Source: Pedobacter psychrotolerans
Lineage (GTDB): Bacteria > Bacteroidota > Bacteroidia > Sphingobacteriales > Sphingobacteriaceae
Assembly (NCBI RefSeq): GCF_004340665.1
Contig: NZ_SLWO01000005.1
Coordinates: forward strand, 312,614-336,613
Reading direction: 5' to 3'
DNA length: 24,000 nt
This document shows, piece by piece, positions 11,143 through 19,942 of this stretch (positions are counted from its first letter, which is position 1; every line of letters starts with the position of its first letter). Made by a program: the position numbers and the translations under genes. The notes beneath the pieces were generated by a model. It was not told the DNA's origin. It was given only the letters and a program-made list of their open reading frames with translations, and did no database searches.

Positions 11143-11997
11143 CTATTGGGTGATAAGTGCCATCACTTTTAAAGCGGCCTTGTCGCCGTTAAAAAGATCC
11201 AGGTCTACCTGACCGGCCACGCCCGTTACCGCCCCGCCTCCAGAATATTGCCAGATGCGATAGTCCTGCCATGAACCAAATAATCCCGGCGGGTTAGATT
11301 GATAAGATGGCACCCATAACGGGTAATTTGGAAAAGAAACGCCGTTAAAATATTCAGCCCAGAACGATTTTGCGGTATAGATCATCGGTGTGCGACCAGT
11401 TGCAGATGAAAGTTGGCTGAGGCAGTCCTGAATCAGCTGCACGCAGGCGTTCTTATTGTTCAGGATGTACTGGTTCATGGCCTGGCTCTGCCCATCATTA
11501 GATCCGACCTGCCATTCGATATCCAGCACCGGCGGTAAAGTGCCCGGGACAGTGAAATCAACGCCGCAGGATAAAAAGTTCTGCATCTGCGTGGCGGCAG
11601 AATCCTGAAAGGTTAAAAAATGATAGGCACCAAATATCAGTCCCTGCTGCCTGATGGTTGCCATATACTGCGCCAGTGTAGGGTCTTTAAAGCCTGCACC
11701 CTGACTGGCTTTGCAATAAATAAACTGGATATGCGGCGATAACTGACTCCAGTTGATGTTGCCGGTAAAATGGCTGATGTCCATGCCTTGCGGCACCAGC
11801 TCATCCAGCACGGCCCAGGTGGCCGGCCCGGCAACGCCGTCGGCACTTAACTGATGGTCCTTTTGAAATTGTGTAACGGCGGCCTGGGTACCCGGGCCAA
11901 AGTTACCATCGATAGAGAGTGAATAATGGAGAAACGAGAGTGCTCTTTGCAGCATAAAAACCTCGCTGCCTGATGAGCCGATTGAAAGTGTTTGCAT
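11143..11997 (-). CDS. Peptidoglycan-binding domain plus GH25 muramidase (endolysin-like lysozyme), no obvious signal peptide
   Basis: The N-terminus GSSGSEVFMLQRALSFLHYSLSIDGNFGPGTQAAVTQFQKDHQLSADGVAGPATWAVL fits the PG_binding_1 pattern. GMDISHFTGNINWSQL...FIYCKASQGAGFKDPTLAQYMATIRQQGLIFGAYHF...VLDIEW fits the GH25 pattern. The N-terminus MQTLSIGSSGSE is not hydrophobic. Confidence 0.85.
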   Translation of the reverse strand: MQTLSIGSSGSEVFMLQRALSFLHYSLSIDGNFGPGTQAAVTQFQKDHQLSADGVAGPATWAVLDELVPQGMDISHFTGNINWSQLSPHIQFIYCKASQGAGFKDPTLAQYMATIRQQGLIFGAYHFLTFQDSAATQMQNFLSCGVDFTVPGTLPPVLDIEWQVGSNDGQSQAMNQYILNNKNACVQLIQDCLSQLSSATGRTPMIYTAKSFWAEYFNGVSFPNYPLWVPSYQSNPPGLFGSWQDYRIWQYSGGGAVTGVAGQVDLDLFNGDKAALKVMALITQ

Positions 11998-12050
11998 AAG
12001 ATAAGATTTAGATGAATGAATATATTAAGTTTTAACGGGTATTGCAACAG

Positions 12051-12827
12051 CTATCCGTAAAATGCATTACCTCCGCTGCTTGTATGAACGGGAGGAGTTT
12101 GTACAGCCGCGGGGGGCTGATATGGATGGATTGCAGGTGCTGGCGCGGCCGCGGGTGTGTAATTAGGAACGCCGGTTTTTGGTGTGCCCTCAGCCTCGTT
12201 TTCTCTTGATCGGATAGCCACAAATATGGCACTGCTAATGCCCATTAACATAAGTAAAGTATCGCTTAACTCTGGCAAACCACAGCCTGTTTTAATTTCT
12301 CCTATTTTGTAAAGGTAAATACTTACGCCTACCATGGTCCATACAACGTGCTGAAACCGGTGAATGCTGATGCCTAAATCATCTGATAATATATCCGTAA
12401 AGAAGCCTAGCGAGGGCGTATTCTGATGTCTTGGTCGCTGATCTTTTATTTCGCGTTTATCGATGATTTTGGACGTGACCGCAGTACATGAAAAAATCCC
12501 CAATAGCACCAGTGCCGTTTGATTTATTTCAGTTTCGGAACAATCGCCCTTAAACAGTGAAAGGTACAGATAGGAACAGGATATGACCACAGTCCACAAT
12601 CCCAACTGTACCTTTTCTAAACTGTAAGGAGACGTAATATTTTTCGGTGACTTACTCAAGTTAATGCTATCAGGTCTGATAAATCCGTCATCATTTTCAA
12701 CATCTTCGCGAAGCAATAATGTATATTTCCCAAGTAAGACAAACGAAAGGATAATGGTTAATATACCGGCTATGGCCAGCAATGATTCCGAATTGGCAAA
12801 AGTTACGAATAGCATTTTCAGATACAT
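12051..12827 (-). CDS. Polytopic membrane protein (about 5 TM helices) with a Pro/Ala-rich C-terminal tail
   Basis: Hydrophobic segments include LLAIAGILTIILSFVLLG, LGLWTVVISCSYLYLSLF, ALVLLGIFSCTAVTS, VVWTMVGVSIYLY and LLMLMGISSAIFVAI. The tail reads TPAAAPAPAIHPYQPPAAVQTPPV. No family recognised. Confidence 0.6.
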   Translation of the reverse strand: MYLKMLFVTFANSESLLAIAGILTIILSFVLLGKYTLLLREDVENDDGFIRPDSINLSKSPKNITSPYSLEKVQLGLWTVVISCSYLYLSLFKGDCSETEINQTALVLLGIFSCTAVTSKIIDKREIKDQRPRHQNTPSLGFFTDILSDDLGISIHRFQHVVWTMVGVSIYLYKIGEIKTGCGLPELSDTLLMLMGISSAIFVAIRSRENEAEGTPKTGVPNYTPAAAPAPAIHPYQPPAAVQTPPVHTSSGGNAFYG

Positions 12828-12914
12828 TAAATTTGCTTATATAATTGTTTTATTGATGATAGTTGGCTTATGGTTTAAAAGAATTTCCAGATGAACTTTT
12901 ATCGATGTGACATA

Positions 12915-13622
12915 TTACTGCCCATTAGCCACTATATTACTGAGCAGGTCAACATGTGCCTGATTAAGATCGCTTAAGGGAGTGCAAATATTTCCAAAAT
13001 CAGCGTAGCGCTGATTAAATCTGAACTGCAAAGTTGGCTGCACGCCTGATGGTTGTGGAAATGTTTCAATACAAACGAAGTTATTATTCAGGAGTGGCAC
13101 TTCTATCCACCAATGTGTTTCATTGGGCCCATAAGGTATTCCGTCTTCCCCTGCATCGTCATAATGCATCACCATTATATAATTAGCTGACTGGCCTGCT
13201 TCAATATACCCCAGTGCGGTGCTGATATTGTTACATACCCAAGTCATGGCCTCTTCCCGGAATTGTCTCCAGATTGTCCAGTCGCCCTGATTATGTGGAG
13301 CATATGGGTCAAACTCCATAATATACTGATGCCCCTGTATTAGGGTTTGCAGAATTTGCTCTTGCGACCAATAAGAAGCCGGATCAGGATTGATACCCAA
13401 TAATATGGTGTCAAAAGCATTCGCAGGCCTGTGAATAATGGTTGGCGTGTTTTGCTGGTTATAGTTAATGTTATCTAATAAACCAAAAAGTGCCCATTTC
13501 CAACAGGAAACGTTGTCTGGCGTAAACCCATCTGGCAAATTAGCGAGTTGTATAGTAGCCCCGGGGCTTGCCTGTACATAATTATTTAAGGCATTAATAA
13601 TAGCCTGAGTTAGTTGTGGCAT
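12915..13622 (-). CDS. Hypothetical protein (235 aa), Trp-rich, no family recognised
   Basis: A long ORF co-directional with its neighbours and without low-complexity sequence. No motif I can name. Confidence 0.55.
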   Translation of the reverse strand: MPQLTQAIINALNNYVQASPGATIQLANLPDGFTPDNVSCWKWALFGLLDNINYNQQNTPTIIHRPANAFDTILLGINPDPASYWSQEQILQTLIQGHQYIMEFDPYAPHNQGDWTIWRQFREEAMTWVCNNISTALGYIEAGQSANYIMVMHYDDAGEDGIPYGPNETHWWIEVPLLNNNFVCIETFPQPSGVQPTLQFRFNQRYADFGNICTPLSDLNQAHVDLLSNIVANGQ

Positions 13623-18803: not shown

Positions 18804-18875
18804 AATAATTTATTTTAATTGTGCTATCCGTTTACCCGGTGATGATTAAGCCAGCTAAAGCTATAATAATGAAAA

Positions 18876-19031
18876 TCAGCTTTTGCCTGGGCTTTCCAGT
18901 ATTTGTTTGCAGCAAACAGACAGGCAGGCCGTGGCGATCAGTTGTCCGCTTCGCTGATTGGTATTGGCATTGTGCATGGCGATCCCCATAGATACGGCCA
19001 TGCTTTGAAATATGATCTGTAAAGAATCCAT
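18876..19031 (-). CDS. Small RebB-core-like ORF (51 aa), missed by the ORF track because it is shorter than 60 aa
   Basis: My manual translation of the minus strand gives MDSLQIIFQSMAVSMGIAMHNANTNQRSGQLIATACLSVCCKQILESPGKS, with ATG at 19031-19029 and stop at 18878-18876. It parallels SIAMLNNVMAETIGMAMHNAVTAQHNAQMLNSATTTSTCARIL of the 148-aa paralog. A TAaaTTTG box lies at 19055-19048, 16 nt upstream. Confidence 0.5.
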   Translation of the reverse strand: MDSLQIIFQSMAVSMGIAMHNANTNQRSGQLIATACLSVCCKQILESPGKS

Positions 19032-19093
19032 GTCTTATTATTTATTACAAATTTAATCACTATAAACATACTTGACTTGTATAAAAAAGGCAA

Positions 19094-19942
19094 TCATTTA
19101 ACAATTTTATCTGTCAACTTTTCTTTCAGCCATGATACTGGCATTTCATCCTTATTTGTCTGCTTAAATGATGATGGGAATGTTCCAAAAACAGTTTTAA
19201 AACAACGGCAAAAATGCGAATGATCGAAAAAACCGGCAGTTAATGCAACTGCTGTAATCGTGCCCGAACTGCCAAGTAATTCAGAAGCGTACTGTAACCT
19301 TAAATCCCGTACAAACCTGGCCGGCGTGATGGGATACAATGTTTTTAATTTACGGTTTAAAGTTGAAGGAGTGATGTTTAATAACTTTGCAAGCTGAGGC
19401 ATCGATTCTACATGATGAAAATTTTCTGCTAAAGCATAGTCAAGAAGCCTTTGCAGCCATTGATGCTGCATGGCATGGTTTAATAAAATTTTAGCTTCGA
19501 ACATATTTATAGGTATTTTCCAACAGGTTGCTGAATGCTGGTGAACATTTTGGCTTTCTCGGTATTTAGACGGACTTATTTTGTATACTTTTATAAAACT
19601 TCTGCAAAAGTTGGCCTGAGATTGAAAACCTGTCAGCCATGCAATACTTTTTTTTTGTTCATTGCTTTTTAACAGTAAATAACAGGCCATACCCAAGCGG
19701 TAATGAAGTATAAGTTTAGCGGGTGTATGCCCGGTAAGTTCAAATACCTTCCGGGTTAACGGTGATGCGGTCGTATTCATTAACATGGCCAGTTCAGCCA
19801 CGCAGAAATTTACATCCTGGTAATGTGATTTCATACAGTTTTTTATCGAATCGATAAACTCCTGTCGCGTTTGTACCGTTATCGTAGCCATGGAAGCAAT
19901 CGGAGAAAGACGTTTTGAGCGTGTCGCAAGATTTAAATTCAT
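19094..19942 (-). CDS. AraC/XylS-family regulator made of two tandem AraC-type DNA-binding domains, with no sensor domain
   Basis: Domain 1 spans about aa 25-128 and ends in GFQSQANFCRSFIKVYKISPSKYRES. Domain 2 spans about aa 165-270 and ends in GFFDHSHFCRCFKTVFGTFPSSFKQT. Both carry the AraC C-terminal signature. Confidence 0.8.
   Translation of the reverse strand: MNLNLATRSKRLSPIASMATITVQTRQEFIDSIKNCMKSHYQDVNFCVAELAMLMNTTASPLTRKVFELTGHTPAKLILHYRLGMACYLLLKSNEQKKSIAWLTGFQSQANFCRSFIKVYKISPSKYRESQNVHQHSATCWKIPINMFEAKILLNHAMQHQWLQRLLDYALAENFHHVESMPQLAKLLNITPSTLNRKLKTLYPITPARFVRDLRLQYASELLGSSGTITAVALTAGFFDHSHFCRCFKTVFGTFPSSFKQTNKDEMPVSWLKEKLTDKIVK

Follow-up and report, generated by a model that had tools for sequence, protein, structure and literature searches.

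In a window of 24,000 nucleotides from the genome of Pedobacter psychrotolerans, a cluster of 17 open reading frames (ORFs) located at positions 11143–19942, all of them on the minus strand, was analyzed. We conclude, with a probability of roughly 0.8, that it is a chromosomal reb cluster of the Group 1 type, which encodes R-bodies and acts by the mechanism proposed below. R-bodies are coiled protein ribbons able to spring open and burst membranes. An earlier note on this DNA had recognized in it a co-directional reb locus of a Bacteroidota genome, and this was borne out by the matches to the RebB family, the layout of the genes, and their orthologs. The intergenic gaps were measured again and amount, in the order of transcription, to 62, 72, 25, 7, 26, 28, 40, 30, 23, 36, 33, 33, 11, 125, 87, and 53 nucleotides (nt), in agreement with the range of 7–125 nt given before. 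The cluster is far beyond chance, as a direct-repeat scan recovered a family of five to six copies and orthologs exist elsewhere for every Reb ORF. The features are listed in Table 1.

Table 1. Features of the reb cluster in the order of transcription (positions are those of the window).
Feature	Position	Strand	Match or method
reg282, AraC-type regulator with two tandem AraC DNA-binding modules (~residues 25–133 and 156–265)	19094–19942	minus	HTH_18 124 bits, two stretches
Promoter-like intergenic region upstream of r51	19032–19093	minus	motif search
r51, short secondary Reb, central HNA-type core alone kept	18876–19031	minus	RebB 35.4 bits
p108, HP1.2-type protein	18477–18803	minus	51% identity to a 116-amino-acid protein of Azospirillum brasilense
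p342, HP1.1-type non-Reb protein, candidate assembly factor	17423–18451	minus	profile match to a 357-amino-acid protein of A. brasilense
r148, HP1.3/S2-type secondary Reb	16969–17415	minus	RebB 53.1 bits, residues 10–70
r74, short divergent Reb without C-terminal domain	16718–16942	minus	RebB 88.9 bits
Five primary Reb paralogs, 88–95 amino acids	16423–16689, 16116–16382, 15819–16085, 15508–15795, 15202–15471	minus	RebB 100–108 bits
p158, Gln/Ala-rich protein directly 3' of the last Reb	14692–15168	minus	no family match (Pfam, NCBIfam)
p74, small DUF2158 protein	14434–14658	minus	Pfam DUF2158 35.5 bits; phrog_3261
p224, variable-region protein	13748–14422	minus	no family match
p235, very rare protein, candidate Cys-His hydrolase	12915–13622	minus	alignment and AlphaFold2 model
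p258, multi-pass membrane protein directly upstream of the muramidase	12051–12827	minus	hydrophobic segments
GH25 endolysin-like muramidase, 284 amino acids, last gene	11143–11997	minus	Pfam Glyco_hydro_25 136.5 bits, PG_binding_1 68.9 bits
Hairpin, 13-bp stem between an A-run and a T-run	10884–10914	minus	terminator scan

Reb genes and their Group 1 partners

The ORFs were searched with the hidden Markov model of the Pfam family RebB (PF11747), for which the whole-protein gathering score is 24 bits. As the earlier note had proposed, the 51-amino-acid ORF was included, and it passed at 35.4 bits together with seven others (53.1, 88.9, 100.1, 106.4, 103.6, 101.4, and 108.3 bits). Eight of the nine RebB ORFs counted previously were thus retained; the ninth, which encodes p108, had no Pfam match at E ≤ 1 and hence was not filed as RebB. 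The former description of five near-identical and four divergent copies holds for the existence of a five-copy main family, but its members are only 76–90% identical pairwise at the amino acid level and 73–84% at the nucleotide level. The synonymous divergence (dS) between the main paralogs is 0.8–1.6, and the ratio of nonsynonymous to synonymous divergence (dN/dS) is 0.035–0.14. The high dS and low dN/dS indicate old duplicates, each retained by selection, and not recent copies; the Reb paralogs are under strong purifying selection.

The signatures of primary Rebs described by Dorr et al. (2026) are prolines flanking QITD, the motifs KxxxD/E and NA(V), QQQ in domain 3, and almost no cysteine. 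All five main copies carry P4, QITD (residues 10–13), NAA or NAT, and QQQ (residues 53–55), and contain no cysteine. KVLGD is present in four of them, r88a having QVLGV in its place, and P27 is missing in the copy r95. These five proteins are presumed to be the ribbon subunits. The protein r74 is 53–64% identical to them, carries the QVTD, NAA/NAT, and QQQ motifs, and has orthologs in every Bacteroidota locus examined. Comparison of family profiles by hhalign placed the r148 and r51 families with the Reb family at probabilities (P) of 99.1% and 97.8%, respectively. The C-terminal tail of r148 is rich in Pro, Thr, and Ser (composition: 16% Ala, 15% Thr, 12% Ser, and 11% Pro), and the orthologs of r51 in Bacteroidota loci show 55–96% identity.

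A hydrophobic N-terminus was found only in p258 among the cluster proteins, which is consistent with assembly in the cytoplasm. Since the small ORFs resemble one another, stand in tandem, and have a regulator close by, they might also be read as encoding secreted peptides or bacteriocin-like precursors. We find this hardly credible, as the main copies score 100–108 bits against RebB, the N-termini bear no likeness to signals or leaders, and no peptidase, transporter, or modification enzyme was detected in the cluster by Pfam or NCBIfam.

For the comparison with other genomes, one genome per species was scanned for relatives of the last Reb (15202–15471, 89 amino acids), and the best 79 of the 374 places encoding one were taken as the comparison set, 1.36 Mb of DNA in total. 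These loci span Pedobacter, Mucilaginibacter, Chitinophagales, Flavobacteriales, Cytophagales, Alteromonadales, Vibrio, Xanthomonas, Caulobacteraceae, Desulfobacterales, SAR324, and others, and their Rebs are 74–100% identical to the query across phyla. The closest locus is that of Pedobacter sp. R20-19, with a protein identity of 91–100% across the cluster, and the cluster is syntenic in four other Pedobacter species and Mucilaginibacter.

The number of main-type Reb copies per locus was one in 7 loci, two in 2, three in 15, four in 31 (the mode), five in 12, six in 8, seven in 3, and eight in 1. The related Bacteroidota loci have five to eight copies, and Raymann et al. (2013) reported one to nine Reb homologs per genome, so the five copies found here are ordinary and not the unusually large set that had been supposed. 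The statement that reb loci are mostly those of Proteobacteria proved dated as well: reb genes of Bacteroidota have been noted since Kordia (2010–2013), and the survey of Dorr et al. (2026) lists this phylum, with Chryseobacterium among the genera having at least ten reb-bearing species.

Raymann et al. (2013) described the Group 1 partners HP1.1 (~360 amino acids), HP1.2 (~110–120 amino acids), HP1.3 (a distant Reb of ~170 amino acids), and HP1.4 (a distant Reb of ~60–80 amino acids), which occur only beside reb genes and are all present on a plasmid of A. brasilense. The 116-amino-acid relative of p108 is a hypothetical protein of the reb locus on this plasmid in strain Sp7. The family profile of p342 matched the 357-amino-acid protein adjoining it (hhalign P = 99.5%, E = 3e-23, 324 columns). 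Thus p342 corresponds to HP1.1, p108 to HP1.2, and r148 to HP1.3, and r74 and r51 are HP1.4-like. With its Reb domain and Pro/Thr/Ser-rich tail, r148 fits both HP1.3 and the S2 group of Dorr et al. (2026). The earlier note had found no familiar homologs of the accessory gene set; this does not hold for the genes interleaved with the Rebs (342, 108, 148, and 74/51 amino acids), which match the published HP1.1–HP1.4.

Among the 79 loci, homologs of r148 were present in 69, those of p108 in 66, and those of HP1.1 in 54, in Bacteroidota as well as in Alpha-, Gamma-, and Deltaproteobacteria; homologs of the internal accessory genes occur in Xanthomonas, Caulobacteraceae, Alteromonadales, and on the A. 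brasilense plasmid. We therefore regard the assignment of the locus to the Group 1 type as highly probable. The p108 family profile aligned in register with the Reb core (E = 1.6e-3 against the primary Rebs; hhalign P = 73%, E = 3e-5 against the r51 family), and p108 is possibly a very remote Reb relative.

The Group 1 loci of Raymann et al. correspond to the "group 1 + S1/S2/S3" clusters of Dorr et al. (2026). Those of the A. brasilense plasmid, Xanthomonas, Marinomonas, and Shewanella share multiple primary Rebs and HP1.1–HP1.4 with the window. The arrangement of the genes differs. In 11 Bacteroidota loci, the order is the AraC gene, r51, HP1.2, HP1.1, HP1.3, r74, and then five to eight main Rebs, whereas in the proteobacterial loci three to four Rebs are followed by (the short Reb/HP1.4), HP1.3, HP1.2, and HP1.1. 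The accessory genes thus precede the Rebs in the window and follow them in Proteobacteria. The window also has an extra short Reb (r51) in front, and its tail of p158, DUF2158, and p258 is specific to Sphingobacteriales/Chitinophagales. A further contrast was seen between the proteins themselves. The main Reb is 74–100% identical between Bacteroidota and Proteobacteria, but HP1.1 of the same loci only 19–28%; either the ribbon subunit is extremely constrained or the Reb genes move apart from their partners.

The Group 2 synteny, which is mutually exclusive with Group 1 in the 2013 survey, comprises HP2.1/HP2.2 (~205–220 amino acids), often with a sigma factor and a cyclic-nucleotide-binding regulator. 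The cluster of Pseudomonas aeruginosa PA14 and the operon of Azorhizobium caulinodans have sigma-factor or Crp-Fnr-type regulators of this kind. No Pfam sigma-factor or Crp/cyclic-nucleotide-binding domain was found in the window ORFs scanned, a comparison confined to the regulators. Like the window, these two experimentally shown R-body producers have chromosomal Reb genes and dedicated regulators, and non-Reb genes contribute to R-body formation in them (AZC_3784 of Azorhizobium is essential). No muramidase was reported in the papers on PA14 and Azorhizobium.

In the type 51 system of Caedibacter taeniospiralis (rebABCD of plasmid pKAP298), small RebB-family proteins are likewise encoded side by side, together with an interleaved non-Reb gene needed for proper assembly. 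This is RebC there, and p342 is proposed for the same part here. RebC is required for on-pathway assembly and yet is absent from the ribbon; the 2013 survey found no homologs of it outside Caedibacter, and p342 is unrelated to it in size. The type 51 operon has four genes only, and HP1.x partners, a regulator, or a muramidase have not been described there.

Regulation and the proposed course of R-body formation

A dedicated regulator at the head of the cluster and a muramidase at its end had both been named in the earlier note, and both were confirmed by their domain matches (Table 1). The regulator reg282 has no sensor domain, and NCBIfam AraC-family matches span both of its halves. Its orthologs head 11 Bacteroidota reb loci, and some regulator with an AraC helix-turn-helix (HTH) was found in 60 of the 79 loci. 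In the proteobacterial loci, this is usually a protein joining a sigma-54-interaction AAA+ domain to the AraC HTH, in contrast to the 282-amino-acid double AraC DNA-binding protein of the window.

A scan for sigma-70 promoters gave 27 sites against 24.5 in shuffled sequence, that is, no excess, and the Bacteroidota −7 motif was therefore used instead. A box of this type, TAAATTTG, lies at 19048–19055 just upstream of r51, and a conserved element, TTGCCTTTTTTATACAAG, at 19076–19093 in the same intergenic region. Both are kept with minor variation upstream of the r51 ortholog in loci L002, L005, L009, and L015 of the comparison set, and the −7 box in the form TAnnTTTG is also present in L039, L059, L071, and L072. 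At the other end, the hairpin that follows the GH25 gene is likely a bidirectional terminator closing the cluster, to judge from its stem and flanking runs.

A trio of genes on the plus strand (21191–23293), encoding a multi-transmembrane protein p218, a HisKA_3 histidine kinase, and a GerE-type response regulator, adjoins the reb cluster. Such a trio also stands beside reb in the other loci of Pedobacter and Mucilaginibacter, and in those of two distant Bacteroidota metagenome-assembled genomes (L059, 3636–5000; L072, 4278–6292; 24–38% identity) it lies immediately upstream of the AraC gene. The same kind of trio adjoins a homolog of p235 in a reb-free contig (L081, 676–2744). It may add another level of regulation, or its link may be to p235.

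The analysis itself shows which genes and families are present, their synteny, the selection on them, and the motifs of promoter and terminator. For the polymer, its trigger, and the roles of the accessory proteins and of lysis, we infer the following course. The regulator with the double AraC module would control the promoter just upstream of r51, and one long transcript would probably reach at least p224 and perhaps the hairpin past the muramidase gene. The five conserved Rebs of ~88 amino acids would then polymerize in the cytoplasm into a coiled ribbon, with r51, p108/HP1.2, r148/HP1.3, and r74 as minor or nucleating components. The p342 (HP1.1) protein would serve as an assembly factor; its conserved position among the Reb genes and the precedents of RebC and AZC_3784 suggest this. 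If Caedibacter and P. aeruginosa are a guide, R-bodies would be made by a subpopulation of the cells and on ingestion and acidification would unroll, rupture membranes, and release the cell contents. A "kamikaze" subpopulation model has been proposed for producers of the PA14/Azorhizobium type. The lineage-specific tail (Q-rich p158, DUF2158, p224, p235, p258, and GH25) may complete or assist the breakage of the cell and supply cargo.

Several points weigh against this course or leave it less secure. The gene order departs from the usual one of Group 1, with the accessory block upstream of the Rebs, which we treat as a variant arrangement since the content is unchanged. The p108 protein falls outside RebB, as described above. 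No match to p342 was found in Pfam, NCBIfam, or PHROG, and the word-indexed protein search returned few homologs (13, then 20). Its AlphaFold2 model, built from 21 sequences, is mainly helical with a small C-terminal sheet (predicted local distance difference test, pLDDT, 88.6; predicted template modeling score, pTM, 0.86), and Foldseek gave no match to it in PDB or BFVD at E ≤ 0.001. The protein is thus without a recognizable fold, and its suggested role in assembly is drawn from position and analogy. No solved Reb structure against which models could be checked was found in PDB, and no experimental R-bodies of Bacteroidota were found in the literature searched. Finally, p235 and p258 are preceded by gaps of 125 and 87 nt, respectively, in which promoters of their own could lie.

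An R-body is recognized as a coiled ribbon resistant to sodium dodecyl sulfate and urea, ~0.5 µm wide by electron microscopy, that extends on a pH shift or another trigger. Instead of such an extrusive, membrane-breaking structure, the Reb-like proteins might form a static cytoplasmic polymer, either an inclusion or a scaffold. This would agree with the fact that function has been shown for few proteobacterial systems and for none in the Bacteroidota clade of the window, and that in type 51 the roll-like morphology alone is no guarantee of pH-driven extension. We nevertheless consider a static polymer improbable, as the main Rebs are 75–83% identical to those of the Group 1-type Marinomonas, Xanthomonas, and Shewanella loci, the signature motifs are all retained, and purifying selection is strong. 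In our judgment, the locus probably makes functional, extendable R-bodies.

The muramidase, the adjoining membrane protein, and the variable slot

The muramidase consists of a PG_binding_1 domain (residues 9–64) and a GH25 domain (residues 72–260) with intact DISH and DIEW motifs, and it has neither a signal peptide nor an N-terminal hydrophobic segment. A signal-less peptidoglycan hydrolase with a cell-wall-binding domain is what phage-type lysis employs. In a search of PHROGs with ten cluster proteins, the muramidase matched endolysin families down to 1e-42. The p258 gene invariably stands directly before the muramidase gene, and its product, kept in L001–L006, has a conserved RPRHQNTPS..GISIHRFQHVVWT loop and a C-terminal FYG. 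In phage and tailocin lysis cassettes, a signal-less PG_binding_1–GH25 enzyme likewise comes last, with a membrane protein directly before it, the two genes lying at the 3' end of a gene cluster for a large cytoplasmic particle. Unlike such cassettes, the window yielded no spanin or phage structural genes. Homology of p258 to the membrane protein encoded after GH25 in Alteromonadales was also assessed and rejected (P = 0.25%).

The endolysin matches could also point to the remains of a prophage or tailocin-like element, of which the Rebs would be former structural genes and the GH25 protein the endolysin. A phage origin of R-bodies is an old hypothesis, and Reb and DUF2158 proteins match PHROG families of unknown function (the Rebs at 15202–15471 and 16969–17415 matched phrog_32040 at E = 4e-24). 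However, neither the cluster ORFs nor the five further large ORFs scanned in the flanks yielded a capsid, tail, portal, terminase, or integrase gene, the PHROG search covering ten of the cluster proteins. No relative of Reb was found in 50,697 GenBank phage records or in IMG/VR contigs either, and phrog_32040 probably derives from a prophage-region call. Since the muramidase is at most ~35% identical to its best phage GH25 match and the cluster is syntenic across Pedobacter species, a prophage remnant is very improbable.

The results showed that GH25 genes occur in 17 of the 79 loci, 12 of these outside Sphingobacteriaceae, in at least six lineages (Alteromonadales, Arenicella, Kangiellaceae, SAR324, Roseivirga, and Chitinophagales). 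In Alteromonadales, the GH25 gene sits in the same co-directional gene string as the Rebs. A genome typically has only ~0–2 GH25 genes, so 17 loci within 1.36 Mb are far above chance. Neither of the two genomic surveys (Raymann et al. 2013; Dorr et al. 2026) mentions a muramidase, hydrolase, or lysis gene, and no paper linking R-bodies with such genes was found in the literature searched. The recurrent GH25 gene beside Group 1 reb genes is the most useful new lead of this analysis.

Other genes of the tail were also followed across the loci. Homologs of p158 occupy the same position in L001–L006 and L009, which are Sphingobacteriaceae and Chitinophagales loci. Most of them begin at MQQQSDSPN, 22 codons downstream of the mechanical ORF start, which indicates that the true start of p158 is probably the internal Met at 15102. 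The gene would then extend over 14692–15102 (136 amino acids) and be separated by 99 nt from the last Reb gene. Kinship of p158 with Reb was rejected (hhalign P = 0.3%), and so was kinship with the Q-rich proteins of the Alteromonadales reb operons (P = 0.3%), the likeness to which is positional and compositional only. The p74 gene follows the p158 homolog in L005, L006, and L009 and is absent from L001–L004.

It is possible that the Reb core is genuine and that the tail (p74, p224, p235, p258, and GH25) is an unrelated neighbor, either a toxin or defense islet or a housekeeping or former phage muramidase with its membrane partner, lying between the reb operon and the tRNA genes. In Pedobacter sp. 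R20-19, the closest relative, other sequence stands in place of the segment 12632–14731, which contains p235, p224, and p74. Besides the window, p235 was found among the related loci only in L005 (Mucilaginibacter sp. Bleaf8), and of its other homologs one lies in a reb-free contig and another stands alone. Promoters might lie in the 125- and 87-nt gaps, and the cluster abuts tRNA genes where a 6.5-kb defense insertion has landed. Meanwhile, each of the five Sphingobacteriaceae loci has p158, p258, and GH25 joined to the cluster at the same place and in the same direction, with varying genes in between, and p158, DUF2158, and p258 also come after the Rebs in a Chitinophagaceae contig. Together with the excess of GH25 near Group 1 reb genes, this makes an unrelated tail unlikely, if a serious contender.

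We return to the reading in which the tail serves the R-body. A uniform lysis function is opposed by the following observations. No match of p258 to Pfam, PHROG, or NCBIfam, and thus to any holin family, was obtained, and with 258 amino acids and four to five hydrophobic segments it is long for a holin. Most proteobacterial GH25 partners have an N-terminal membrane anchor or lipobox and are therefore exported, and they lie at varying distances from and orientations to reb. The route of the muramidase to the wall is not uniform across the loci. We propose only tentatively that the muramidase and the membrane protein are functionally coupled to R-body release or cell bursting.

The genes p224 and p235 occupy a variable slot. 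The p224 protein is 100% identical to EV200_105289 of P. psychrotolerans; the word-indexed search returned three homologs, and diverged versions (26–28% identity) are found in the same position in L001–L004, with one more in L025. W13, G29, W31, W34, Q36, R55, D87, and C104 are invariant. A D...ELK-like motif had suggested a PD-(D/E)xK nuclease, a candidate that was dropped as E-x-K is lost in the most distant homolog.

The p235 family comprises 14 representative clusters among 1.84 billion proteins, and no Pfam or PDB sequence match to it was found. Cys40, Trp41, Asn167, and His170 are invariant in 13 sequences, and the AlphaFold2 model (pLDDT 93.3) places C40 in a helix (40–46) and H170 in a strand (170–176). 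Papain-like Cys-His hydrolases carry their catalytic Cys at the N-terminus of a helix and the His in a β-strand. A fold search of PDB gave no significant match, papain-fold deubiquitinases (8adc, 9g7g) being near the top at E = 0.02–0.08. From the alignment and the model, p235 is, at low confidence, a candidate Cys-His enzyme and possible cargo. In the metagenome contig L081 (3372–7292), a 38%-identical homolog lies between two paralogous proteins of ~490 amino acids, for which no Pfam, NCBIfam, or PDB sequence match was found; proteins of the p235 type may work with partners absent from the window. That p235 or p224 is the delivered cargo appears doubtful.

In Alteromonadales-type Group 1 operons, a protein of 380–505 amino acids is encoded between HP1.1 and GH25 (L020, 14008–15468), and its homologs occur in 28 gammaproteobacterial loci. 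Its similarity to the HNH endonuclease PtuB is weak and below threshold (E = 1e-9), and the protein could be a nuclease candidate for an R-body-associated toxin. One may speculate that Group 1 loci are self-sacrificing delivery cassettes, in which a ribbon operon is tied to a muramidase (17 of 79 loci, at least seven lineages) and to a swappable cargo slot, the slot being filled by p224 and p235 here and by the weakly HNH-like protein in Alteromonadales. The muramidase would reach the wall through R-body extension or the membrane protein, the producer would burst in the phagosome of a grazer, and the cargo would be freed. We regard this scheme as rather unlikely.

Surroundings of the cluster and its meaning

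The region 11000–19000 of the window has a G+C content of 0.40–0.50 against 0.33–0.39 in the flanks, and the non-Reb genes are also richer in G+C. A G+C-rich cluster beside tRNA genes is compatible with an old horizontal acquisition, yet it is syntenic in Pedobacter and Mucilaginibacter. Plus-strand ORFs of 107–142 amino acids at 15502–15825, 16973–17401, and 14695–15027 overlap the Reb, r148, and p158 genes; these antisense ORFs are regarded as by-products of the Ala/Thr/Gln-biased codon content of the sense strand and not as genes. A tRNA-Met/tRNA-Glu pair is duplicated at 3168–3399 and 4052–4283 (239 nt, 97% identical), and beside the second pair there is an insertion of ~6.5 kb (4283–10857) relative to Pedobacter sp. 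R20-19. It encodes a 1234-amino-acid YobI-like P-loop NTPase (PADLOC Tmn, E = 5e-80) and a 486-amino-acid RES-domain protein, and looks like a small defense islet at a tRNA hotspot.

The reb cluster is of a kind already known, and its gene order, regulator type, and tail are variant features; the locus leaves the picture of what a reb cluster is unchanged. With it, a soil Pedobacter that is cold-tolerant and can be cultured is seen to carry a complete, compact cluster of Group 1. The leads that are unmentioned in both genomic surveys are the recurrent GH25 gene, the dedicated AraC-HTH regulator in most Group 1 loci, the confident orphan-fold model of HP1.1, and a variable slot that may hold cargo. 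Among the force-generating protein machines of bacteria, R-bodies rank with the largest, and they attract interest as a basis for delivery tools that break membranes.

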